Below, in pieces: positions 27,886 to 50,376 of a stretch of DNA of 64,000 bases; position 1 is the first letter of the stretch, and each line of letters starts with the position of its first letter. The notes below the pieces were generated by a model. It did no database searches. It saw only the letters and a list, made by a program, of their open reading frames with translations, and was not told the DNA's origin. The position numbers were made by a program, and so were the translations under genes. Source of the stretch: Acidimicrobiales bacterium (GTDB taxonomy: Bacteria > Actinomycetota > Acidimicrobiia > Acidimicrobiales > SZUA-35); assembly GCA_013003535.1 (NCBI GenBank), contig JABDIY010000009.1, positions 13,451 to 77,450 of the forward strand. The letters are read 5' to 3'.

Positions 27886-29622
27886 TTAGGGCGGCATCGT
27901 GTCGGTGGCCAATATGAATTCGACGGATTCGCTGAATCCGATCATGACCTGGCCCCGTGTGAGGACGCCCGTCTCCAGTGTTTCCAGCCAAAACGCTCGA
28001 CCCTTGACATCTGGGACCCGCCCCAGGACGTTCTGGTACACGAGATCGACGAACTGGCCGTTGTCCAGATTGCCGTAGGTCCCAACGAACTCAGCGGACC
28101 GGGCGAACTCGCCGCTCAAAGCCCCCAGGTTGGCACCGTTGGCGATTTGTTCGAGCCAGAAATCCAGGCCCCCTTGGTCTGCGCTCCTGTTGAAGTAGGC
28201 ACGATAGAGACGCTCGATCTGGTGCCCGAGCGAAGGGCCCGGCGCGGCGGTTTCGGTCCGATTCAGGAACTCCTGGCTTTCGGAAAACCCGATCATCAAT
28301 GAACCCCTTGTCATGCCAGATTGGAGTTGCCCCAACCAAAACGCTCGACCCGAAGCGTCGGGGGGCCGGCCCAAAACATTGGCATACACGAGATCTACGA
28401 AACCACCATCGCTGAGGACTCCGTAGGTGTTCTCGAACTCCGTCGATGCGGCGAACTGCGCCGAGATGGCGCTGAGCGAAGTGCCGCCAGCTCGGAATGT
28501 GGTCCAATAGGAAAGGCCTCTGCTGTCGGGCTCGCGGTCGAGATAAGCGAAATAGAGCCGCCGAATTTGATCACTCAATTGCGGGCCCTCGAGACTGCGC
28601 CGATCAATGATCCGTATCTCGGGGCCGTTGAGATCCATCAGCTCCAGAATCGTGTCGCCGGTGCCTCGAGAGGTCAACAATGCAGCCCCGCTGAGAGAGG
28701 CGTCGCGGGGCCGTCCCAGCGGTGACGCCCCCGACGCTTGCAGATAGGTGAGTTCGCCGCTGGTTCGCCACCTATAGAGCTCATCATTGCTGTTGAAGAG
28801 CACGCTGGTGGCATTGCCGGCCAACACCACCGGAGCTGCTGATGCCTGGCTGGGCTGGGGATACCCAACCTCGGTGGGGGTGGAACCGTCGGTAGTGGCG
28901 ATGCTGAAGCGCACCGGGTCTGTGGCGGCCAGCGCTTGGACAGAAGCATCGGCCGAAAGGCCGGCCAGTTGGGTCAAGGGCGAAAAACTTGCCACTCCGG
29001 AACTCACTGCCACCTGACGGATCGATTCACCCGAGCGAAAGAAGGCGGCCTGACCGTTGGGGATGACAAAGACGTCGTGAGCTTCAGGTCCGAGCGCCGG
29101 TGTCACCGTGGCCGAGAATGACCGAACCCGGGTGGCGGTCCAGATCCGCATGATTCCCGATGTTCCGCTGACCTGTTCTGTGTAAACGACAACTGCGCCG
29201 GACTGGCTCAGCGCCATGTCCGTGATCCTGCCTCCGTTGCTGGGGAGCGCCACGCTCTGACCGGTGGCGCGACTCCATCGCAGCGGGAGGCCACCGGAGC
29301 TGTAGACCACGGTTTCACCGCGATCGGATACGCCAAACGGCACCGCATCCACGTCGCCCAGGAGAATGGTGTTGTTCATGCCCACGTCAAAGAGCCCAAC
29401 CCGACCGCCGGGCCGGTCATAGAGAACAAACCGCCCATTGCCCGACAGGTCCGCGAACGAGTTGTTCGCCGCCGACCCTACAAATCGGGGGGTGACCCGC
29501 ATTCGCAGGGAGGCCAGCGAGTCGACCGGGGCAGTAGCCGCCCCGACGGGAAGTGCCAGCCCTGCCACAGCTGCCAGTACCACGACCAAAATCAGAGTCA
29601 GGCGACGCATAGATTTCATCAT
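27886..29622 (-). CDS. secreted protein: N-terminal propeller-like region plus three C-terminal DUF4214 repeats
   Basis: Signal peptide MKSMRRLTLILVVVLAAVAGLALPVGA. The pattern (I/V)xRLYxAY(L/F)xRxxDxxGLxxW...L(V)YxNVLGRxPDxxG(R)xFW occurs three times. Confidence 0.7.
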   Translation of the reverse strand: MMKSMRRLTLILVVVLAAVAGLALPVGAATAPVDSLASLRMRVTPRFVGSAANNSFADLSGNGRFVLYDRPGGRVGLFDVGMNNTILLGDVDAVPFGVSDRGETVVYSSGGLPLRWSRATGQSVALPSNGGRITDMALSQSGAVVVYTEQVSGTSGIMRIWTATRVRSFSATVTPALGPEAHDVFVIPNGQAAFFRSGESIRQVAVSSGVASFSPLTQLAGLSADASVQALAATDPVRFSIATTDGSTPTEVGYPQPSQASAAPVVLAGNATSVLFNSNDELYRWRTSGELTYLQASGASPLGRPRDASLSGAALLTSRGTGDTILELMDLNGPEIRIIDRRSLEGPQLSDQIRRLYFAYLDREPDSRGLSYWTTFRAGGTSLSAISAQFAASTEFENTYGVLSDGGFVDLVYANVLGRPPDASGRAFWLGQLQSGMTRGSLMIGFSESQEFLNRTETAAPGPSLGHQIERLYRAYFNRSADQGGLDFWLEQIANGANLGALSGEFARSAEFVGTYGNLDNGQFVDLVYQNVLGRVPDVKGRAFWLETLETGVLTRGQVMIGFSESVEFILATDTMPP

Positions 29623-36845: not shown

Positions 36846-38273
36846 TCAGTCCGGCCAACTGGCTTCGATCTCGTCGAGGAACTCATAGGCATCGATCGTC
36901 CCACCGGCAAAACCCACCGAGGCTCGCAAGAAGACGTCGGAGCCGATTTGGGCCGGCATCAATTCTGACCCATCGAACCGGAACGGATTGGCACTCACCA
37001 GGATCGCTGCCATTTCTCGGTCGATCGTTGTCCCGTACAGATCGAGGTTGTGCAATTGGTGAGCGCTGAGATACGCACCACTTCCAGCCAAGATGCGGTT
37101 GTTGGCGAAATCGGGTGCCGCCATGTACGCCAGAAGAGTCATGGTGGCACGGTCAGAACTGAGGGCGGACGCAAAGGTCCCGGTCCCCACCACCACATTC
37201 CCGAAGCCTTCATCGACCACCGGAAAATGGAAGGCAGAGAGATCCAGACCGGCTCCGAGGTTCGCGCCGTCGGCCCGGTAGGTGATGGCGATCGAACTGC
37301 GCTGGCGGTGCATGACACACTTGCCGTCCACGTGATTCTGAGCTGCTTCTGTGAACGAAATCGTGTTGATCGCGTTTCGCCGATACACATTCCCGGGAGC
37401 GAACCACATATCGCCCACCCGGTTCACCACGGAAACCACCCGCTCATCGTTGAATGGGACCTGGTGATTGACCCAGCTGTCATAAAACGCGGGGCCCTCG
37501 ATCCGAATCATGTAGTCCTCGATCCAATCAGTTGCCGGCCAACCGGACTTTTCGCCAGCGGCCAAACCAATGCACCAGGGAGTGAGGCCATCGGCCTTGA
37601 TGCGTTCCACCAGCGCTTCCAGCTCGGCCAAGCGTTGCGGAATCTCATAGCCTCTGGCCTCGAACTCCCTGGGCGAGTACCACACGAGGCTGGTTACGGT
37701 CGCCGAAATGGGGACACCGTAGGTACGGTTGTTGAGCGACACCAACGATGACCAAAATGGATCGAAACCGGCGGCAAGTTGCCGCCGGATGAGCCTCGGC
37801 AACGGAACGAGGTCCCCCCGACCGGCGAGATCTTGCAAGCGATTGGGGTGGGCGGTAATCACCACGTCCGGAGCGGACCCCGCTTCGATCATCTCGTCCA
37901 CAAGTTCATCGGAATTGACCGCCCCGACATAGTCGACCTCGATTCCCGTGGCCGCGGTGAAACGCCGAAATGCGAACGTCAAACTCTCAGCGCCACCACT
38001 CACCTCGGGGCCAAAGACTGTGACCGAGGCTCCCGGAACGGAGTCGAGCTGGTCCAGCGCCGGCTGTTGCGGATCGAAGCTGGAATCAGAGAACTGGGGG
38101 ATGCGTATCTGCGGATTCAAGATGAGCTGCGGAACCGCGATGGTGGTAGCCGAGGGTTCGGCGTTCCTCACCTCCGCAGTGCCCACACCCAGGGCAGCGT
38201 CGAACCTCGATGGTTCAACAGTGCAGGCGGCTGCACTCAGAACCAGACACGCAACGACCGCCAATCGGCTCAC
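36846..38273 (-). CDS. extracellular solute-binding lipoprotein (family-1, sugar-type SBP) with no adjacent permease or ATPase
   Basis: Signal plus lipobox MSRLAVVACLVLSAAAC. SBP_bac_1-like length and pattern. GTGA overlap with the upstream channel gene. Confidence 0.75.
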   Translation of the reverse strand: MSRLAVVACLVLSAAACTVEPSRFDAALGVGTAEVRNAEPSATTIAVPQLILNPQIRIPQFSDSSFDPQQPALDQLDSVPGASVTVFGPEVSGGAESLTFAFRRFTAATGIEVDYVGAVNSDELVDEMIEAGSAPDVVITAHPNRLQDLAGRGDLVPLPRLIRRQLAAGFDPFWSSLVSLNNRTYGVPISATVTSLVWYSPREFEARGYEIPQRLAELEALVERIKADGLTPWCIGLAAGEKSGWPATDWIEDYMIRIEGPAFYDSWVNHQVPFNDERVVSVVNRVGDMWFAPGNVYRRNAINTISFTEAAQNHVDGKCVMHRQRSSIAITYRADGANLGAGLDLSAFHFPVVDEGFGNVVVGTGTFASALSSDRATMTLLAYMAAPDFANNRILAGSGAYLSAHQLHNLDLYGTTIDREMAAILVSANPFRFDGSELMPAQIGSDVFLRASVGFAGGTIDAYEFLDEIEASWPD

Positions 38274-39799
38274 GATCTGCTCCGCCTGCTGGTGGGCTTG
38301 GCACCATTGGGCTCCTCGGGGGAATCGGCGGGCTTGATACGAGAAACCGCCGCCCTCCTGCTCTGCACGATTCCTTGGATCTCGTCAGCGAACGTGATGT
38401 TCACACGTGCGATGTTGTCCACTGCGGTTCCCGAGATGATGACCGCCTCCACGTCGGTCAAGGCACGGATCGTGAGCAGATTGGGTTTCGTGCCCAGCAT
38501 CGATTGCTCACCGAAAACCTCCCCCTTTGTCAGCGTCACCACCTCGTTCGCTTTGTTGAGCCCAACCGCAGTTCCGCTCAGGATCAAACCCAACCCGCGG
38601 CTTCCACCACCTTCCACCTGAAGCAGCTCGCCGGCGGCAAAGGTGAGGATGTGGTTGGCGTCGGTCGTACGGTCGGTTTCCTCGCTGAGGAGTTGCTCAT
38701 TCGCCAACGTTTCCGCGACGGATTCGGGAATCGTCGATCCCGACAAAGCCCGAACTCGCCGCTGCACCAGTTCTGGCTGTTCTTCGGTTGGAAGGGCTCC
38801 CGCATCGTAATTGTGGAGGGTTCGAATGGGGAATGGGATCGTGATCTCGTGCCGCTTGGCGGCATACCAGATTCGGGTCATGAAATGACTGCGGACCGTC
38901 GGCATGATGTCGAAGGACTCCATACGCAAGTACACCTGGTAGCCGATCGAGAAGTCGTCGTAGCTGACGCACCGAATATCAACTTCGCTCTCTGGCACGA
39001 GGTGCGGCGTCCCCCTGATGACCTCGGTCAGCATTGCCCGAACCTTGTTCGGCGGATCGTCATAACTGAAACCCAGATTCACAACTTCGATGTGATCCAA
39101 CTCTGGCCTGGAGTTGTTGATTATCAGTTTGGTTCCAAACACGATGTTCGGGACCACTATGAGGTCCTCCTGACGATTGCGGATCCGAACGGTCCGCCAG
39201 TTGATGTCGGTGACCTTTCCCTCCACTCCGTCGATGTCGATCCAATCGCCTACAACGAATGGTTTCTCGCTCAGAATTGCTATGCCCCCCATGAGACTGG
39301 CGAGCGTGTCCTGCATGGCGAGGCCAAATACCAACCCGCCTAGACCGAGGGCGGCGAACGTGCCTGTGATGCTGAGGCCCCAAATCATGGACAAGATGGC
39401 CAGCGAGCCCACGAAAAGCAAAGCGACACGGGCGATGTCTACGAGGAGACGAGGGGCCTGACTGAAGAGGTTGTACTCTCCTCCGGCCGTCAGGAATTCC
39501 CGCACCAGCGACAACAACACTGCGAGCCCAAGAACCGCAGCAAGCGTGCCAGCCACCTGCACGACCATGCTTGGGCTGTCGCCTGAGCGCAGCTCCAGCA
39601 CCCGCTGCATGAACAGCACGGCAACAGCCAAGGGGAGAAACACGTTTCGCAGGAGCCGGACCGGCCGAACGAATCTGTTGTTTCGCCGCTCCAGTCGGCG
39701 GATGATCTCCCCGAGCAGAATAGCCGACAGGGGAAACCCGATCACGAGGATCGCACCCCATTGGAACCACGCCTCGGAGAAGAGTGAGCGACCCAGCAT
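38270..39799 (-). CDS. MscS-family mechanosensitive channel with a C-terminal cyclic-nucleotide-binding-like domain (bCNG-type)
   Basis: GLAMQDTLASLMGGIAILSEKPFVVGDWI...VPN MscS core. C-terminal beta-roll with FGE. ATG at 39799 is preceded by GGAGGA; a TTG at 39826 is also possible. Confidence 0.85.
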   Translation of the reverse strand: MLGRSLFSEAWFQWGAILVIGFPLSAILLGEIIRRLERRNNRFVRPVRLLRNVFLPLAVAVLFMQRVLELRSGDSPSMVVQVAGTLAAVLGLAVLLSLVREFLTAGGEYNLFSQAPRLLVDIARVALLFVGSLAILSMIWGLSITGTFAALGLGGLVFGLAMQDTLASLMGGIAILSEKPFVVGDWIDIDGVEGKVTDINWRTVRIRNRQEDLIVVPNIVFGTKLIINNSRPELDHIEVVNLGFSYDDPPNKVRAMLTEVIRGTPHLVPESEVDIRCVSYDDFSIGYQVYLRMESFDIMPTVRSHFMTRIWYAAKRHEITIPFPIRTLHNYDAGALPTEEQPELVQRRVRALSGSTIPESVAETLANEQLLSEETDRTTDANHILTFAAGELLQVEGGGSRGLGLILSGTAVGLNKANEVVTLTKGEVFGEQSMLGTKPNLLTIRALTDVEAVIISGTAVDNIARVNITFADEIQGIVQSRRAAVSRIKPADSPEEPNGAKPTSRRSRS

Positions 39800-41934
39800 C
39801 AGACTTTTTCCTCCGTCCAGAGCCAAGCTTCGATGAAGTGACCGTCAACGTTGAGCGATTCTGCTGGAACGAACGAGAATCGCTCTGCCAGCGAATCGGC
39901 GAGCCCTTTCTCCACCAGCAGCGTGCCGGGTGCCGCAGCATCGGCCAAACCAGCCGCATCGCTCACCGGATCGCCCCAGATCTCGAAGCTAATTTGGGTG
40001 CTTCCCACAATTCCCGCCTCGACATTCCCCGAGGCCACGCCGATCTGGAGCTCGAGGTTCCAATCATTGAATTTGCTCAGCGCTTCCAGTTTTGCATCGA
40101 GCGCTACCGCGAACTGCATGGCTCGTTGTCGTTGATCGAGCCGGGGCTCCAACAACCCACAGACGGCGATATAGGTGCTGCTGCCGCCCCTGATCTTCTC
40201 GACCCCGTTGGCGGCCGCCACCTCATCGAAGCTCCCGATCACCTCATCGAGCAGGTCCTTGGCGTCTTCCACGGAAGCTGTTCGTGCATAACGGCTGAAT
40301 CCGCTGAGGTTGGCCACGACCACAGCAACGTTGGGGTACTCGTCGACAACGTTGGTCTCTCCCTTGCTCACCCGCTCGGCGATCTGGGAGGGCATGAGGT
40401 TGAGTATCAGCGACTGCATTTCGGCGGTTTGTGCTTCGATGATATGGCTCTGTTCACGCATTCCGGAAACCATGTGATCGATCGACGCCGCCAGCTGGCC
40501 CACCTCGTCTCGACCCGACACAGGAACTTCGCTGTTCAGATCCCCCTTTGTCACACCGTCGGCCCACTCGATGAGCGCGGTGACCGGACGGATGAGTCGG
40601 GTGGCTATGGGCATGGCGAGTCCGGTGAGGAACAAGACGATCAAGCCGGTGGCAGCCAGAAGAGCCCGCTGAAGGCTGTTCACCGGTGCCTCCGCCTCCG
40701 ACAACGCTTGCTCAGAAATGATGGCCCAATCCAGACCGGCAGGGATATCCAGTGGTCCATAGCTACTGAGGGTGACCCCGCCGTGATATGTCTCGATCAC
40801 GTCGATCCCAACCTCGCCGGCCAGCCCACGCTGGGCGGCGGCGGTTCGAACCACTTGACGAAGGACGGTATTTCCGCTCGCCACGGTGTCGGACCCGTCC
40901 TCCGATCCCGTCGCATCGATCGCAGCGCGGAACGCGGTGGGGTCCTCGACCAGCAACCGGGACTGCGATCGCATCATCAGATCCGAGCCCACCAGGTAGG
41001 CCTCCCCGGTCTCACCAAAGCCAGCTTCTTCCCAGTTCCCGTCGGCCGTCATCACCGAATCGATTTGGTCGACAGGGATTTGGAACGCCAGAACACCCAA
41101 GAGGCTTTGATCAACCGGGTTGAATATCGGTGCCGCGAGAAAAGCCACTGGGGCATCCAGGGAGGGCCGGTAGAACCCGTAGTCGGAGAAGGTGACAAAA
41201 CCGGGAACGGGATTTCGTAGAACCTGTTCCACCAGTTCGGCCAGCGAAGTACGGCCCCATGGGCCGGACGAAAGGCTCGTTGCGAAGTCGACGTGCTTCT
41301 CGACCGTGTAGACGATGCGCTTGGTGTTCGGTTCGATGATGTAGATGTCGCCGTAACCGAATCGATCGGCAAAAGTTCTCAGCGAGGGGTGATAGCGGGA
41401 ATGGACGCGGCTGTAGAACGAGCCGTCATCGGCTTCATCGATGGCCCGCCGCCTCAATGCAGCATTGTCGATCGTGTAGAAGTGCTGGAGGTGAACCGCC
41501 ACCGGATCCGTTGGTATGTACTGCTCGGCTTTGAGCTCCGCAGTTCTCGCGTCAGCTGGCAAACGGACCAAGAAATCCTCATAAAACGTTTGGCTGGACT
41601 CGGTCCAAACGGGATCGGGAGTTTGTCCAGCCAGCTGTTCGGCTGCAACGGCGAACTCGGCCGCTGCCGTCGCCATGCTCCGGTCCTGACTTAGCGTGGC
41701 CGCCTGGTCCTCCACCAACTGAAGATAGCGCTCGATCAGTTCGGCACGGGTCTCGCGCTGCGCTACCAAATCGTCCTCTACCAGCTCGCTGATCGCCCGC
41801 TGGCCCCGCTGAAAACTGATCACTCCTACGACCAGAACAGAGATGATCGCAACGCCCAAGACCGTTATCAACAGTTTGGACTTCACACTGAGATGTCTGA
41901 TCACCAGCTTGATAGTACTGCGACGGGAAATCAT
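39799..41934 (-). CDS. membrane receptor: extracytoplasmic Cache-like sensor, HAMP, degenerate class III cyclase-homology domain
   Basis: Two TM helices flank a ~300-aa sensor. HAMP (DEVGQLAASIDHM). The CHD aligns with Rv1625c but the catalytic residues are replaced. Possible starts at 41973 (GTG), 41934 (ATG) and 41886 (GTG). Confidence 0.8.
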   Translation of the reverse strand: MISRRSTIKLVIRHLSVKSKLLITVLGVAIISVLVVGVISFQRGQRAISELVEDDLVAQRETRAELIERYLQLVEDQAATLSQDRSMATAAAEFAVAAEQLAGQTPDPVWTESSQTFYEDFLVRLPADARTAELKAEQYIPTDPVAVHLQHFYTIDNAALRRRAIDEADDGSFYSRVHSRYHPSLRTFADRFGYGDIYIIEPNTKRIVYTVEKHVDFATSLSSGPWGRTSLAELVEQVLRNPVPGFVTFSDYGFYRPSLDAPVAFLAAPIFNPVDQSLLGVLAFQIPVDQIDSVMTADGNWEEAGFGETGEAYLVGSDLMMRSQSRLLVEDPTAFRAAIDATGSEDGSDTVASGNTVLRQVVRTAAAQRGLAGEVGIDVIETYHGGVTLSSYGPLDIPAGLDWAIISEQALSEAEAPVNSLQRALLAATGLIVLFLTGLAMPIATRLIRPVTALIEWADGVTKGDLNSEVPVSGRDEVGQLAASIDHMVSGMREQSHIIEAQTAEMQSLILNLMPSQIAERVSKGETNVVDEYPNVAVVVANLSGFSRYARTASVEDAKDLLDEVIGSFDEVAAANGVEKIRGGSSTYIAVCGLLEPRLDQRQRAMQFAVALDAKLEALSKFNDWNLELQIGVASGNVEAGIVGSTQISFEIWGDPVSDAAGLADAAAPGTLLVEKGLADSLAERFSFVPAESLNVDGHFIEAWLWTEEKV

Positions 41935-42946
41935 GGGCGGCAACAACCGACGCCTGATCCCATTGTGCTTCACTATTCAGATCGACCCCATCTCAGCCTC
42001 TGCAACCCGTGCCGGTCTGCTTTCACTTCTCGGATTGCTCGTCGTCGGCCTGTGCGTCGTGGCATTACCAGGCCTTCTTTCTGACGACGATCAGGCGGGA
42101 AATTCTGTCCCCGCCCAGACAGCCAGCACATTCACGAGCACCCAATCGACAGATCCTCAGAACGGTCCTTCAACAACATTGCTGGCCACAGCTCGGATTA
42201 GTGCTGAGGGAATCGTGCTCGACGGCCTGGTATCGACCGAAGGCCAGCGAGATGCTCTCGTGGATGCGGCGCGTCGCCGCGTGGGTCCGGCACTTGTCGA
42301 GGACCAACTCGCGGTGGCAACGGGCCTGACCTCCTCGGAAGGACGCGACAACGGCGTGGTTGCTCTCCAGAGCTTCATTACGGGTGTACCGGACGGGGTG
42401 ACCGTGGCCGCCACTACATCGGTAGATCAGCTATCGGTTGTCGGCGAGGCGACCGACGCTGTAGCAGCGGCCGGCGTTGAGCGGGCCCTCACAACCGCTA
42501 TCGCCAGTTCCCCCGGAATGGAGAGCACGAACACCGTTGAAGTTCCGCCGCCGCCACCCCCCACCGAAGCCGAACTTCGAGCCGCCGCCCAAGATGAACT
42601 GACCAACTTGAATACCCTGCTCGCCGCTGAGGTCCTCTTTGCCACCAGCTCGAACGAACCGACCGAAGAATTCAAGGCGCTCTTGGACCGGGTGCCGGAT
42701 CTGCTGACCCGCCATCCGTCAGTAACGGTCGAGATCGTGGGCCACACCGACGACCGGGGATCTGAAGGCGGCAATCAGAAACTCAGCGATCAACGGGCGC
42801 GGGCAGCTGTGGACTACCTGGTGACAGTTGGGGTGGACCCGGCCCGGCTCAGCTCCAGGGGCGCCGGCGAAAGCGAACCGATCGCCACCAACTCAACTCG
42901 CGACGGGCGCGCCGCCAATCGCCGGGTCGAGCTCGTCGCCCGCTGA
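41933..42946 (+). CDS. OmpA/MotB-domain protein with an N-terminal TM anchor
   Basis: C-terminal VEIVGHTDDRGSEGGNQKLSDQRA...NRRVELV peptidoglycan-binding domain. Start uncertain (ATG 41933 or TTG 41963). Confidence 0.75.
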   Translation: MGGNNRRLIPLCFTIQIDPISASATRAGLLSLLGLLVVGLCVVALPGLLSDDDQAGNSVPAQTASTFTSTQSTDPQNGPSTTLLATARISAEGIVLDGLVSTEGQRDALVDAARRRVGPALVEDQLAVATGLTSSEGRDNGVVALQSFITGVPDGVTVAATTSVDQLSVVGEATDAVAAAGVERALTTAIASSPGMESTNTVEVPPPPPPTEAELRAAAQDELTNLNTLLAAEVLFATSSNEPTEEFKALLDRVPDLLTRHPSVTVEIVGHTDDRGSEGGNQKLSDQRARAAVDYLVTVGVDPARLSSRGAGESEPIATNSTRDGRAANRRVELVAR

Positions 42947-43751: not shown

Positions 43752-44729
43752 TCACGGATAGGGCCAGCCGTTGGCTGAGCAGCCGTGGAGGCTCTTGGTC
43801 TGTTGTTGCATGACCGGGGCGGGTCCGCTCCCAGGGCAGCTTTGGTGGCCAAGACCCAAGAAATGGCCGACCTCGTGATTTATGACGTACGCCCGATATT
43901 CCGACAACGGCGCAGTCCAGTGTTCCACTGCACCGTTCCAACGGTCGACGTTGATGTTGATGTTCCGTCCGTTCCGACAGGAGAGCGTGCCGTTGGTGCG
44001 CAGTGGAGCGCAGCGCCGGTCCACCGTGGCTGGAGATGCGATCAGAATGGCGATATCCGAACGCTGATCGTCGTCGGTCCGCCGCAGCCTGAGGTCGAAT
44101 CGAGCTATCCAACTCCGGTGATCGGCCAGGATTGATTGCACCTCGAGCGTTGTTTGGTCAGTGGGAAGGCCCAACCCGGCTTCTACGGTCACCGAGAACG
44201 ATGTCACCGGGCCGGTTCCGAACCCGAAGGTGAACGGATCGAGATCAGCGGGCTCCCCCAGGAAACTATATGTTCGGACGAACTCTGGTCCGGCGGCGAA
44301 ATAGCGCATCACAGCTCCGCGCGTAAGAGCTCCAGTCGAGAGCAGATCCTGCCAGTAGGACAGGCCACTGCTATCGGGCTCTCGAAACAGGACATTCCGG
44401 TAGACGAGGTTGAGGAACTCGCCGTCGCTCGGCTGACCGTAGCGGTTCTGAAACTCTGGTGACGTCGCAAAGAACTGGGCGATCTCGTCGATGCTGGACC
44501 CTGCGTTGTTGATCTCGATCCAATACCGGGCACCAGAGAGGTCTGGATGACGTTCAAAGAATGCGAAATACAAGCGGAGAACGTCAGCGTTCGAGGCGCG
44601 AAAGAATTCAGAACTGGTGATCTGGTCCAATTCCGATGGGGTGGCGGCAACGGGGGCGGTGCCGTGATTGGTTGAACCAACGACTGCCAATCCCACGCAA
44701 ACGACCACCTTGCGCAGGGTCCCGAACAT
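43752..44729 (-). CDS. secreted DUF4214 domain protein fused to a metzincin-type zinc protease domain (DUF3152-like)
   Basis: Signal peptide, one DUF4214 repeat, then C-terminal HEVGHFLGLGH plus PVMQQQ (Met-turn-like). Confidence 0.7.
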   Translation of the reverse strand: MFGTLRKVVVCVGLAVVGSTNHGTAPVAATPSELDQITSSEFFRASNADVLRLYFAFFERHPDLSGARYWIEINNAGSSIDEIAQFFATSPEFQNRYGQPSDGEFLNLVYRNVLFREPDSSGLSYWQDLLSTGALTRGAVMRYFAAGPEFVRTYSFLGEPADLDPFTFGFGTGPVTSFSVTVEAGLGLPTDQTTLEVQSILADHRSWIARFDLRLRRTDDDQRSDIAILIASPATVDRRCAPLRTNGTLSCRNGRNININVDRWNGAVEHWTAPLSEYRAYVINHEVGHFLGLGHQSCPGSGPAPVMQQQTKSLHGCSANGWPYP

Positions 44730-46965: not shown

Positions 46966-48258
46966 CTAGTCAGAGGTTGTGACAGCGGCCTCGTAGATCA
47001 CGTCGTCCACGGATCTGTCAACCTCGATTACGCCGAACCCGTCGCCGCCGTCGATGGTCAAGACCGGGCCGTCTTCGATTTCGTGGTTGAAGACGGCTTT
47101 GGTGCCATCAGCTACTCGGATCGTTTCGTCGCCTTCGAGCAGAAGAAGTTGCCTGCCGGAGGGGATGACCTCTACTCGATATGCGTTCGGCAGATTCAGC
47201 TCAATTATTCCAGCTCCCAGGTCAACCGGATAGGTGTAGTCCTCGCTGAGATCGAGACCTCTGAAATCAAGTCCCACGTGCCCCACCCCGAACCCAACCT
47301 CAGGGACTGGAGGACCCTCGGGGCTATCCACCGAGTCGATCTGGAGAGACACCGATCCAAACCCGTCATCGATGGATGAACCTATGACGGCCGCCCCGAT
47401 CACCAGCAGCAGGGAGAGAATGCTGGCGGGAATCAACGCCCAGGCCGGCCGACGAAAGAAGAGGCTGGCTATGAATCCAAAGACCGAGAATCCTAGGAAC
47501 ACCGCAGCGAACGCGATCACACCAACTCCCGAGCTGGTGATCAACATCAAAACACAGACCAACAATGCAGCACCCAGGGCCGCCGAGGTGATCGGTGCCC
47601 GGCGGCGTCGGCTCCGTGTGACAACGTCGGCCTCGGACTTGGCAAGGGCCCAGTGTTCGGGCTCGTGGGCCATCGACGCAACCGGGTCGGACCATGCTTC
47701 GCCAGTCATGAGGCGTTCAGCCTCGATCAACAGCGGATCTCGATCGTCATCAACCGGCGCCCCGGGCGCGGCTGGTGGTGGCGGTGGGGCCACCGACGCC
47801 GAGCCAGCGGGGCGTTCAGCTTTTGGGTACTGCCCTCCCAGAGCCTTGCGGGAATCGTTGTCCTGCATGAGCAAATAGACGCCACCGCCCACGAGCGCAG
47901 CAGGAAGGAGTAAGCCGAGGGAAATGGTGGCCGTCCCGCTGATGGCACCGATGGCGAACAGGGCGAAGATGCCGCCGGCGATCAGCCGGGCAGGGTTTTC
48001 AGAGAATGCCAAGGTGTCCAATCGGGGATCGTCCTCGTCGGGAATGGCCAACCATGCCGCGATGTAGGCCAGGAAACCGGCGCCACCGAAGAGGAGGCTC
48101 ACGACGAGTGCGATGCGGATCCACTTGGTCTCAATGCCAAAATAGTTGCCGAGACCTTTGGCGACGCCGGCAACCGAGCCGGAGTTACTGCGCCGAAGCC
48201 GTTTCGGAGACGCTGCGGGATAGCCGGTGGGTGTTGAGGATTCAGTAGATGTTGTCAT
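46966..48258 (-). CDS. PspC-domain membrane protein
   Basis: LRRSNSGSVAGVAKGLGNYFGIETKWIRIALVV...AWLAIPDE is a PspC domain, followed by multiple TM helices. Confidence 0.8.
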   Translation of the reverse strand: MTTSTESSTPTGYPAASPKRLRRSNSGSVAGVAKGLGNYFGIETKWIRIALVVSLLFGGAGFLAYIAAWLAIPDEDDPRLDTLAFSENPARLIAGGIFALFAIGAISGTATISLGLLLPAALVGGGVYLLMQDNDSRKALGGQYPKAERPAGSASVAPPPPPAAPGAPVDDDRDPLLIEAERLMTGEAWSDPVASMAHEPEHWALAKSEADVVTRSRRRRAPITSAALGAALLVCVLMLITSSGVGVIAFAAVFLGFSVFGFIASLFFRRPAWALIPASILSLLLVIGAAVIGSSIDDGFGSVSLQIDSVDSPEGPPVPEVGFGVGHVGLDFRGLDLSEDYTYPVDLGAGIIELNLPNAYRVEVIPSGRQLLLLEGDETIRVADGTKAVFNHEIEDGPVLTIDGGDGFGVIEVDRSVDDVIYEAAVTTSD

Positions 48259-48313
48259 GCATTTATCCTCCTCTTAGCGCCAGCAGCCGGGGATCGGGAA
48301 GTTCCTTGATCCG

Positions 48314-48343
48314 ACCCTGAGCTCATCAGGGTGTACTCAGGGT
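48314..48343. promoter_or_regulatory. heptamer array ACCCTGA-n5-TCAGGGT-n4-TCAGGGT in the divergent PspC / kinase promoter region
   Basis: Exact heptamers at 48314..48320 (inverted), 48326..48332 and 48337..48343. Confidence 0.4.
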
Positions 48344-48352
48344 AGAACCCCG

Positions 48353-49735
48353 ATGCCTCCCCGGGGCTCACGTGCGACAATAGAGGTGATGTCCACAAGC
48401 CCCCCTCCACCGTCGCGGTCCGGCTTCGCCGGGTGGTCCTTCGGTGTCGATGGATCCACTGGCAACTGGAGGCTGCCCAGTCTGGAAAACGACGAAGCCG
48501 TCATTGGAGGGGTCGCCAGTGGGATCGCCGCCGAGCTGGGAGTGCCCACCTCATGGATCCGAATGGCATTCGTGTTCCTCTTCGCACTGGGAGGGTGGGG
48601 GGCTTTCGTCTATGCCTTCGCCTGGGCAGGACTGCATTGGGCTCGCACGGCTGATTTTGCCGAGATTCGCTCGGGACCGGTTGAACCCCGTGGTCGCTCC
48701 GAGCAACAGCGGCGCCTGGCGGTAATGCTGATCACCGGTGGTGTGGCCTTGGCCAGCGCAACGCTGATGCCCTTGGGCTCCGACGTTGGCTTCGCGGTCG
48801 GTTTCGTCATAGTGGGATTGGGTTTGGCGTGGCGAACGAGCACCAGCACCAACAGCTCCGATGCTCCCATGCCGGGACGGATCCGTATCCGCCAACTCCT
48901 CGGCGGACTAGCCCTCGTGGTTGGCGGGCTGTCCATCCTGCTGCTACAACTCGGCCCGGGGAGTACCAGTACGTTCGTCGTCGGAGCCGCACTCATTGGG
49001 CTGGTCGGCACGATCGTGGTTTCGGGACCGTGGATCATGCAGGTCCTGAGCGATTTCGATTCTGAGCGGCAGGCGCGGATTCGGTCCGAGGAGCGCGCCG
49101 AGGTGGCAGCCCATCTGCATGACTCGGTCCTGCAAACGCTGTCATTGATTCAAAAGGCCGAAGATCCTCAGATAGCAGCCAACCTGGCCCGCCGCCAGGA
49201 ACGAGAATTGCGGAACTGGCTGGATCCCAACCGGGCATCGCGAATGGGCGGCTCCATTCGGGGCCAGCTGGATGAGATGGCCAGTGATCTGGAAGAGCGG
49301 TACGGAACGCCGGTGGAAGTGGTTGCGGTCGGCGACGCCCTGGTGGATCCGGCGATCGCAGCTCTCTTGAGGGCCACACGGGAGGCCGCGATCAACGCAG
49401 CACAACACTCGGGCACCCCCCGGGTAGACATCTTCGTGGAGGTTGGAGAAGACCACGTTGAGCTGTTCGTCCGAGACACAGGATCGGGCTTTGACCCCGA
49501 GGCGGTCGACGGCGATCGGCGTGGGGTTCGAGAATCGATCGTCGGCCGGATGGAACGGGCTGGCGGCAGCGCGCTCATCACCTCCGAAGCGGGCGAAGGC
49601 ACTGAGATCGAGCTACGGGTTCCGTTGTCGGCTGAAGCCGAAGCTGAACCCGGGCCGGTACCAAAGCAACGAGCGAGTCGTTCGAGTCCGAGACCGGCGA
49701 AGCGACGGCGCGGCCGGAGAAAGCAAAAGACATGA
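48353..49735 (+). CDS. sensor histidine kinase with an N-terminal PspC domain (LiaS/NarX-type HisKA_3)
   Basis: PspC domain (IGGVASGIAAELGVPTSWIRMAFV), TM helices, H-box AAHLHDSVLQTL, HATPase. Alternative ATG at 48389. Confidence 0.8.
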   Translation: MPPRGSRATIEVMSTSPPPPSRSGFAGWSFGVDGSTGNWRLPSLENDEAVIGGVASGIAAELGVPTSWIRMAFVFLFALGGWGAFVYAFAWAGLHWARTADFAEIRSGPVEPRGRSEQQRRLAVMLITGGVALASATLMPLGSDVGFAVGFVIVGLGLAWRTSTSTNSSDAPMPGRIRIRQLLGGLALVVGGLSILLLQLGPGSTSTFVVGAALIGLVGTIVVSGPWIMQVLSDFDSERQARIRSEERAEVAAHLHDSVLQTLSLIQKAEDPQIAANLARRQERELRNWLDPNRASRMGGSIRGQLDEMASDLEERYGTPVEVVAVGDALVDPAIAALLRATREAAINAAQHSGTPRVDIFVEVGEDHVELFVRDTGSGFDPEAVDGDRRGVRESIVGRMERAGGSALITSEAGEGTEIELRVPLSAEAEAEPGPVPKQRASRSSPRPAKRRRGRRKQKT

Positions 49736-50376
49736 CCTATGCCCCCAAAGTGATTCTCGTAGATGACCATGACATGGTGAGAGCTGGGGTGGCTGCCCAA
49801 CTGGGAGACCGCGTCCAGATTCTCGGGGAAGCCGGCGATGTCGGTGAAGCGGTCGAGCTGATTCTGGATCGAGTGCCCGAGGTTGTCTTGTTAGACGTTC
49901 ACCTCCCCTCTGGCACAGGTGCCGACGTGATCACCGGTGTTCGAGCGGGCGGGGGCGAAGAAGTCCGTTTCCTGGCGCTTTCGGTCAGCGACGCGCCCGA
50001 CGACGTAATCGCCGTGATCCGAGCCGGAGCTCGTGGCTATGTGACCAAGTCCATCAGTGGCGACCAGCTCGCTGATGCGGTCGTGCGCGTTGCCGAGGGG
50101 GATGCGGTCTTTTCGCCTCGCCTGGCCGGGTTTGTGATCGATGCATTCAGCGCCACGCTCCCGACTCCCGAGGACCCAGAACTGGACCTTCTTTCTCCTC
50201 GGGAACAAGAAGTGATGCGGCTGCTCGCCCGAGGCTATGCATACAAAGAAATCGCCAGACGGCTGACCATCAGCATCAAGACTGTGGAAACTCACGCATC
50301 GAGCGTCCTCCGGAAGCTACAGGTCTCGAACCGCCACGAACTCACGCGATGGGCGGCCCGGCGACGCATTCTCTGA
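49732..50376 (+). CDS. NarL/LuxR-family response regulator
   Basis: Receiver domain (ILVDDH...LLDVHLP) plus a LuxR HTH (LSPREQEVMRLLARGYAYKEIA). 4-nt overlap with the kinase gene. Confidence 0.9.
   Translation: MTYAPKVILVDDHDMVRAGVAAQLGDRVQILGEAGDVGEAVELILDRVPEVVLLDVHLPSGTGADVITGVRAGGGEEVRFLALSVSDAPDDVIAVIRAGARGYVTKSISGDQLADAVVRVAEGDAVFSPRLAGFVIDAFSATLPTPEDPELDLLSPREQEVMRLLARGYAYKEIARRLTISIKTVETHASSVLRKLQVSNRHELTRWAARRRIL

Follow-up and report, generated by a model that had tools for sequence, protein, structure and literature searches.

Introduction

The activity of class III nucleotide cyclases is abolished when both metal-binding aspartates are lost, as established for Rv1625c and the mammalian adenylyl cyclases (ACs), and their substrate is specified by a pair of residues, Lys/Asp or Lys/Thr for ATP and Glu/Cys for GTP. 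In the cyclic nucleotide-binding (CNB) domains that read the resulting cyclic nucleotide monophosphates (cNMPs), an arginine of the phosphate-binding cassette is the hallmark cNMP contact (CAP, PKA, HCN and MloK1), and its loss abolishes high-affinity cNMP binding. Here, we analyzed a gene pair in 64,000 nucleotides of an Acidimicrobiales genome (contig JABDIY010000009.1), hereafter the window, in which a transmembrane receptor ending in a class III cyclase homology domain (CHD) is directly followed by an MscS-like channel ending in a CNB-like domain. By the residues present at their active and binding sites, both nucleotide functions of this “cyclase” and “cyclic-nucleotide-gated channel” operon appear to have been abandoned with the pairing kept.

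Counterparts of both proteins have been described separately. In M. tuberculosis, Rv2435c was reported as a double-Cache cyclase (PMC4822843) and grouped as “mammalian type” together with Rv1625c (PMC3961136), and Rv2434c was called a membrane protein involved in cAMP signalling (PMC11205783). For bacterial channels of the bCNG (MscS-CNB) type, a 2026 review still lists the physiological role and the effect of nucleotides on gating as unknown (PMC13591265).

Results

All six catalytic residues of the CHD are replaced

The receptor gene lies on the minus strand at 39799..41904 and encodes 701 aa from a GTG at 41904 (database protein P0001) to the stop codon TGA at 39799..39801; the longest open reading frame (ORF; 39799..41973) encodes 724 aa, with the CHD at its 3′ end. 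All receptor and channel features given below are on this strand. The protein consists of a first transmembrane helix (TM1), a periplasmic double Cache (dCache) domain, a second transmembrane helix (TM2), a HAMP domain, a signalling helix and the CHD, and the order TM1, double Cache, TM2, HAMP is that of dCache-HAMP transmembrane receptors. The sensor region comprises ~380 residues between the two helices, which are visible as two hydrophobic flanking segments (40669..41811). Its dCache_1 Pfam match (40960..41358) scores 28 bits, under the gathering score (cut-off 45), and the precomputed annotation assigns PF02743 to the receptor and to most homologues, with which the sensor region aligns end to end. 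HAMP (40459..40608; 43 bits, cut-off 25) and the CHD (PF00211, Guanylate_cyc, 39838..40344, ORF residues 544–712; 77 bits, cut-off 21.9) both exceed their thresholds.

Comparison with structures in the PDB by phmmer aligned the receptor C-terminus with the catalytic domains of Rv1625c/Cya (7yz9, 4p2f; E values of 5e-28 to 1e-27) and with mammalian AC8 (E 1.7e-32), AC5 and AC9. An initial sequence-only reading of the window had placed the last 177 residues against Rv1625c without a gap; this is correct for the catalytic core, and phmmer introduced single-residue gaps in the flanks. All three catalytic motifs are gapless: FADIVGFT of the Rv1625c type corresponds to VANLSGFS in the CHD, EKIKVSGDSYM to EKIRGGSSTYI, and YDVWGDAVNVASRM to FEIWGDPVSDAAGL. 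The substitutions named in that reading were borne out by the codons in the DNA and by the alignments, and the catalytic set D, D, K, D, N, R has become N, S, R, E, S, G. The metal-binding aspartates are replaced by Asn (40309..40311, position D256 of Rv1625c) and Ser (40177..40179, D300), the substrate-specifying Lys and Asp by Arg (40189..40191, K296) and Glu (39982..39984, D365), and the transition-state Asn and Arg by Ser (39961..39963, N372) and Gly (39949..39951, R376).

The same register was obtained with MAFFT across 92 relatives and with hmmalign against a profile of canonical members, both of which recovered DDKDNR in the canonical relatives. This register agrees with the residue correspondence of the sequence-only reading, and a register shift that would restore Asp/Asp/Asn/Arg was ruled out by phmmer, MAFFT and hmmalign. 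An AlphaFold2 model of the CHD (pLDDT 86.5, pTM 0.80) matched bacterial and mammalian class III cyclases in Foldseek with TM-scores of 0.67–0.90, normalised either way over isolated catalytic domains, the best matches being 5o5l/5o5k and Rv1625c; mammalian AC C1/C2 and soluble guanylate cyclase were also among its structural neighbours. The CHD is thus a homologue of class IIIa cyclases in sequence and fold that retains none of the catalytic features of the class. Both metal-binding aspartates are absent in three independent alignments, the Arg and Glu at the substrate positions fit neither the adenylate nor the guanylate pattern, and Ser and Gly stand where the transition-state Asn and Arg would be. 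Judging from these residues, the CHD is very probably catalytically dead.

The CHD is the most strongly conserved part of the receptor

We estimated ratios of nonsynonymous to synonymous substitution (dN/dS) between the window genes and an 88%-identical orthologue from a metagenome-assembled genome of an uncultured Acidimicrobiales bacterium. Sensor, HAMP domain and CHD are all under purifying selection, most strongly the CHD, whose dN/dS of 0.039 is the lowest in the receptor (dCache 0.118, whole protein 0.085). Across nine orthologues, the most distant at 56% identity, 45% of the CHD columns are invariant, compared with 28–37% in the other receptor regions; the invariant parts include the CHD stretch EPRLDQRQRAM..FAVA, and the segment EPRLDQRQRAMQFAVA is invariant as well. 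Five of the six former catalytic sites vary among these orthologues: N/Q/T/H and S/G/A/W/R at the two metal positions, R/K/S at the former Lys, S/A at the former Asn and G/A at the former Arg. The sixth, the former substrate-specifying Asp, is Glu throughout the clade. Selection no longer acts on catalysis, while it acts strongly on the domain; the CHD is almost certainly functional and under selection. The initial description, in which an otherwise intact Cache-HAMP receptor ends in a pseudo-cyclase output domain, agrees with the loss of all six sites, the intact predicted fold and the purifying selection.

The downstream channel carries a degenerate CNB-like domain

The sequence-only reading had not taken in the context of the receptor, namely a coupled MscS-like channel with a degenerate CNB-like domain, a pairing that is conserved across phyla. 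The channel gene (38270..39799, 509 aa) lies directly downstream of the receptor gene, so that a dCache-HAMP-CHD gene stands immediately upstream of a co-oriented MscS-CNB gene. In a TGATG junction (39797..39801), with a Shine-Dalgarno-like GGAGGA motif ~10 nt upstream, the stop codon of the receptor gene overlaps the ATG of the channel gene by one base; this overlap and motif indicate that receptor and channel are translationally coupled.

The channel has the MscS pore-lining region and β-domain (MS_channel_2nd, PF00924, 39107..39310, 69 bits; MS_channel_3rd, PF21082, 33 bits), and NCBIfam MscS models match it in part; no NCBIfam model was found for the receptor or the channel as such. At its C-terminus lies a CNB fold (PF00027, 38408..38644; 35 bits, cut-off 27.5), whose model has a pLDDT of 81 overall and above 90 in the β-roll core and gave cAMP-binding domains (PKA-R, CRP/GlxR, HCN) as top Foldseek matches. 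What the channel lacks, relative to bCNG/MscS-CNB channels, is an intact cassette of the form G-E-x-A-L...R-[ST]-A. Its cassette, FGEQSMLGTKPNLLTIRA (38462..38515), keeps the Glu, has Leu-Leu in place of Ser/Thr-Ala and, in alignments to PKG/PKA and to MloK1, CAP and PKA, has Asn (38480..38482) in place of the cNMP-phosphate-binding Arg. In family alignments, distant MscS-CNB relatives show the canonical GEM.LLTGEPR[ST]A, and the Asn at the Arg position of the window channel is therefore not an alignment artefact.

Like the CHD in the receptor, the CNB-like domain is the best-conserved part of the channel (dN/dS 0.011, against 0.080 for the whole protein), with 99% amino-acid identity to the orthologue, compared with 92% for the channel as a whole. 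Two further features were seen in the alignments. The β-roll of the window clade has a deletion of ~7 residues after “SGTAVGLN”, and all Arg-less channels are without the C-terminal “LLGRI..FFGL” tail conserved in canonical-cassette MscS-CNB channels.

Non-canonical CHDs are linked to channels across phyla

We surveyed 80 relatives (of roughly 590 in GTDB), taking one genome per GTDB species, which together with metagenome contigs and the window locus gave 93 loci, 88 of them non-redundant. After removal of duplicates and two incomplete loci, 55 receptors with a non-canonical CHD had a channel gene directly downstream and two had none, at least one of the latter lying on a sequence that ends just past the receptor gene. 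Receptors with the canonical DDKDNR set showed the opposite pattern: one was channel-linked (Tychonema, L035) and 28, mostly from Reyranella, Enhydrobacter and rhizobia, had no channel. The CHD was accordingly non-canonical in 55 of the 56 channel-linked receptors (Fisher test of CHD state versus linkage, p = 4e-19, an upper bound on significance given that the loci are phylogenetically non-independent). In the Tychonema locus the partner cassette is still degenerate (Glu to Val, Arg to Ser), and the locus may be an intermediate or an exception.

Channel-linked receptors occur in Acidimicrobiales, many Cyanobacteria, Anaerolineales, Planctomycetales, Microbacteriaceae and Mycobacterium, as well as in Halobeggiatoa and other Gammaproteobacteria; the cyanobacterial relatives fall in the same alignable family, and the receptor–channel pairing persists at 30–35% identity across phyla. 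In the linked CHDs, between one and six of the catalytic residues are substituted, in many different patterns (DDKDNA, DSKDNQ, SDDHAQ, EGRDSR, DQRDNR and HTNSYx among them). On the channel side, the cassette Arg is retained in none of the linked loci, the single “R” tabulated being a product of an out-of-frame ORF.

As a control, we examined channels with canonical cassettes. Two such MscS-CNB channels checked individually stand alone, and most of 31 metagenome loci with enough upstream DNA, drawn from a scan biased to canonical cassettes, are without a CHD neighbour. The sole dCache-HAMP-CHD neighbour in this control (L097) has a non-canonical CHD, DSKDNH, and its channel a degenerate cassette. 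Five further control loci (L142, L144, L152, L165 and L104) have a full-length CHD neighbour of a different cyclase type with a complete DDKTNR set; inspection of the L142 sequence suggests a CHASE2-like cyclase. Survey and control together indicate that writer and reader domains share one state, canonical or degenerate, and that it is the degenerate pairs that are tightly linked. The five DDKTNR loci may represent a second, apparently functional cyclase–channel pairing distinct from the dCache-HAMP family.

Two apparent anomalies were set aside. A 614-aa protein combining MscS, Guanylate_cyc and cNMP-binding matches (P0042) proved to be a frameshifted read-through on an indel-rich contig and is not Rosetta-stone evidence for an interaction. 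The receptor at L014 (5200–6150), seemingly truncated at residue 448, is likewise frameshifted. In both cases the CHD sequence runs on undamaged in another frame.

Genomic surroundings of the pair

A third gene follows the channel on the minus strand and encodes an orphan solute-binding protein (SBP) of the SBP_bac_1 family (36846..38273), a lipoprotein with the lipobox ..LSAAAC; a GTGA (38270..38273) joins its GTG start with the stop codon of the channel gene, an overlap that couples the two translationally. It has weak similarity to carbohydrate ABC sugar-binding proteins (GlcS, NgcE and MalE models), no ABC permease or ATPase gene was found near it, and it is kept in the Acidimicrobiales clade only.

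Divergent from the receptor lies a gene for an OmpA-family peptidoglycan-binding protein with a weak BON match (41933..42946, plus strand; ORF from 41843). The order OmpA-like gene, receptor, channel, SBP is conserved in all Acidimicrobiales orthologous loci. Plausible starts of the two divergent genes are at most 30 nt apart (41900..41975), which would place their promoters within coding DNA or imply leaderless mRNAs; a possible receptor ATG (41932..41934, minus strand) and an OmpA-like ATG (41933..41935, plus strand) overlap in a CATG palindrome. Beyond the OmpA-like gene there is often a PNP_UDP_1 phosphorylase, and an osmotic or envelope link is possible.

Other neighbours in the window are PutA, ArgRS, a decarboxylase, a phosphorylase and PspC-type envelope-stress genes; no CRP or phosphodiesterase gene was found among the window neighbours. 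The envelope-stress genes at 46966..50376 encode a PspC-domain protein, a PspC-domain histidine kinase and a LuxR-type response regulator, and the same PspC/LuxR cluster lies near the receptor in L007. Unrelated to the receptor–channel pair, two minus-strand genes encode DUF4214-repeat proteins (27886..29622 and 43752..44729), the second of which also has DUF3152 and a weak metalloprotease-like Peptidase_M10 signature. A six-frame search of the 64-kb window found no second CHD and no other CNB domain, and thus no complementary CHD partner of the kind that the sequence-only reading had suggested looking for. The idea of such a partner is itself logically weak. Since metal-binding and substrate/transition-state residues alike are gone from the CHD, pairing it with a canonical CHD would leave both active sites of the heterodimer incomplete, and only an inhibitory role would be open to it.

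Discussion

We have described two translationally coupled proteins in each of which the best-conserved domain is one that has lost the residues of its nucleotide chemistry. The most economical reading of this pattern is a conformational output that needs no messenger. The receptor probably works with the adjacent channel. That its pseudo-cyclase CHD is a non-catalytic output module signalling to this channel without cAMP or cGMP is a proposal to which we give about an even chance, and the absence of cyclase activity and of cNMP binding that it presumes is drawn from mutational knowledge of the two families.

Signalling would begin with an external ligand binding the dCache domain. In the Acidimicrobiales clade, the co-encoded orphan SBP lipoprotein would probably present this ligand, much as in other SBP-dependent receptors. 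The HAMP domain and signalling helix would then re-set the CHD-like dimer, and the conformational change would pass to the channel without cAMP or cGMP, most likely through contact of the CHD-like dimer with the CNB-like domain or with cytoplasmic or transmembrane-proximal parts of the channel, so that channel gating is altered. Coupling through direct domain contact is a tentative part of this scheme, somewhat short of an even prospect. More speculative again is the evolutionary scenario, in which an ancestral module of receptor cyclase, cNMP and MscS-like channel would have become a messenger-free receptor–channel complex, repeatedly or early, in several phyla. The dead CHD and the dead CNB domain would now recognise each other, forming a two-protein, ligand-gated MscS-type channel that is SBP-fed in Acidimicrobiales and has M. 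tuberculosis Rv2435c/Rv2434c as a member.

Several observations weigh against messenger-free coupling. The channel-linked receptor of Tychonema bourrellyi (L035) has a fully canonical DDKDNR CHD. Many other members keep most of the catalytic residues (DDKDNA, for example) and could retain weak activity, so the family may not be wholly messenger-free. A mirror-tree comparison gave a positive but weak, merely suggestive signal that is confounded by shared phylogeny: the partial correlation of the CHD was 0.53 with the CNB-like domain and 0.65 with the MscS transmembrane region, and that of the dCache domain with the channel transmembrane region was 0.03. A heptameric MscS channel and a dimeric receptor differ in symmetry, which disfavours a rigid complex. 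Inactivity and non-binding are both predicted from residue identity, and the search for other cyclases or cNMP effectors was confined to the 64-kb window.

Among other explanations, the CHD may serve only for dimerisation or as a scaffold, or it may partner, in a dominant-negative or regulatory role, a canonical cyclase encoded elsewhere in the genome, in which case its adjacency to the channel would reflect co-regulation, or the channel would sense something else such as membrane tension. Class III CHDs are dimeric, and heterodimers with one degenerate half are known from mammalian AC C1/C2 and soluble guanylate cyclase. The report that bCNG-type channels are non-protective in hypo-osmotic shock and have no known physiological role (PMC13591265) also counts in favour of this explanation. 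However, a fully degenerate CHD completes neither active site of a heterodimer, and the window holds no second CHD. The stop/start overlap and the pairing at 30–35% identity across phyla argue for a specific link between receptor and channel, and the co-loss of the cassette Arg in the channel is left unexplained. We therefore consider this explanation unlikely.

A re-tooled CHD, with a new catalytic or ligand-binding chemistry built on relocated residues, through which the pair would still communicate by a diffusible small molecule, the Arg-less CNB-like domain binding this product or another metabolite, is in our view improbable. In its favour, both domains are very strongly conserved; the window clade, like many members from Cyanobacteria, keeps the Glu of the cassette and its general shape, and all members of the clade have Glu where the substrate Asp used to be. 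In general, pseudoenzymes are known whose catalytic residues have migrated (PMC10211241). A re-tooled site should nevertheless be held fixed, whereas both metal ligands are lost here and their positions are free to vary among close orthologues, and the substitution patterns differ so widely between lineages that no common new chemistry is apparent.

The channel might instead still be gated by cNMPs from other cyclases, with the dead CHD as an allosteric or energy sensor that binds ATP or GTP. The Pfam cNMP_binding score of the CNB-like domain, clear of its threshold, and the cAMP-bound domains that are the closest structural matches of its model speak for such gating. Against it, Arg-[ST]-Ala is replaced by Asn-Leu-Leu, the β-roll of the window clade is shortened by ~7 residues, and the Arg is absent from every channel-linked locus whereas stand-alone relatives keep a perfect cassette, which makes cNMP gating in trans very improbable. 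Finally, that the CHD is a decaying, pseudogene-like remnant, as the loss of all six catalytic residues might suggest, is refuted by the selection analysis (dN/dS lowest in the protein), by reading frames intact in orthologues down to 56% identity with 45% of CHD columns invariant, and by the confidently modelled fold, and is practically untenable.

The degeneracy of both domains bears on annotation. CHD proteins are commonly labelled adenylate/guanylate cyclases and MscS-CNB proteins cyclic-nucleotide-gated channels, and for one widespread operon both of these labels are probably wrong. Per-genome “cyclase” counts in surveys of cAMP signalling would need such members excluded. The proposal also offers a testable explanation for the obscure role of nucleotides in bCNG-type channels and a hypothesis for the long-uncharacterised Rv2435c/Rv2434c pair of M. 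tuberculosis. If true, it would be a clear case in nature in which the writer and reader of a second messenger turned jointly into a pseudo-enzyme and a pseudo-receptor, with strong selection maintained. A literature search, with the original bCNG papers outside its scope, found nothing specific on joint CHD/CNB degeneracy or on pseudo-cyclase CHDs.

Among known systems, the CHD has clear homology with Rv1625c/Cya and the mammalian AC domains, sharing their fold, a similar helical linker before the CHD and gapless motifs. Unlike Rv1625c, the window receptor has a two-helix dCache-HAMP sensor rather than a six-helix membrane anchor, and all six of its catalytic residues are replaced. The alphaproteobacterial dCache-HAMP-CHD cyclases of Reyranella, Enhydrobacter and rhizobia (P0014, for example) have the same architecture end to end at 30–34% identity. 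They differ from the window receptor in keeping DDKDNR and in having no downstream MscS-CNB gene (28 of 28 non-redundant loci). The partner channel, in turn, resembles bCNG/MscS-CNB channels in its MscS pore, β-domain and C-terminal CNB fold; unlike those with canonical cassettes, the partner channels are without the cassette Arg, having Asn in the window and Ser, Thr or other residues elsewhere.

Three loci from environmental and cultured Mycobacterium (L081, L083 and L091) have the same pair, with CHDs reading QDRADR, DNRDDR and DNRDNQ and with Arg-less cassettes; their receptors share ~30% identity with the window protein, and of the six catalytic residues two to four are retained in their CHDs. 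The M. tuberculosis pair, in which Rv2434c, the neighbour of Rv2435c, is an MscS/cNMP-binding membrane protein, is very likely a member of this receptor–channel family. The best 120 matches of a homology search begun at a Mycobacterium locus were all close relatives from environmental sequences, and Rv2435c was not one of these. Farther afield, catalysis or ligand binding has likewise been lost from degenerate GGDEF/EAL proteins (LapD-type) and from the CNB-homology domains of KCNH channels, which are kept as conformational or interaction modules. These belong to different families and are functional analogies; in the system described here, degeneracy affects both writer and reader of one and the same messenger, and the two are genetically coupled.

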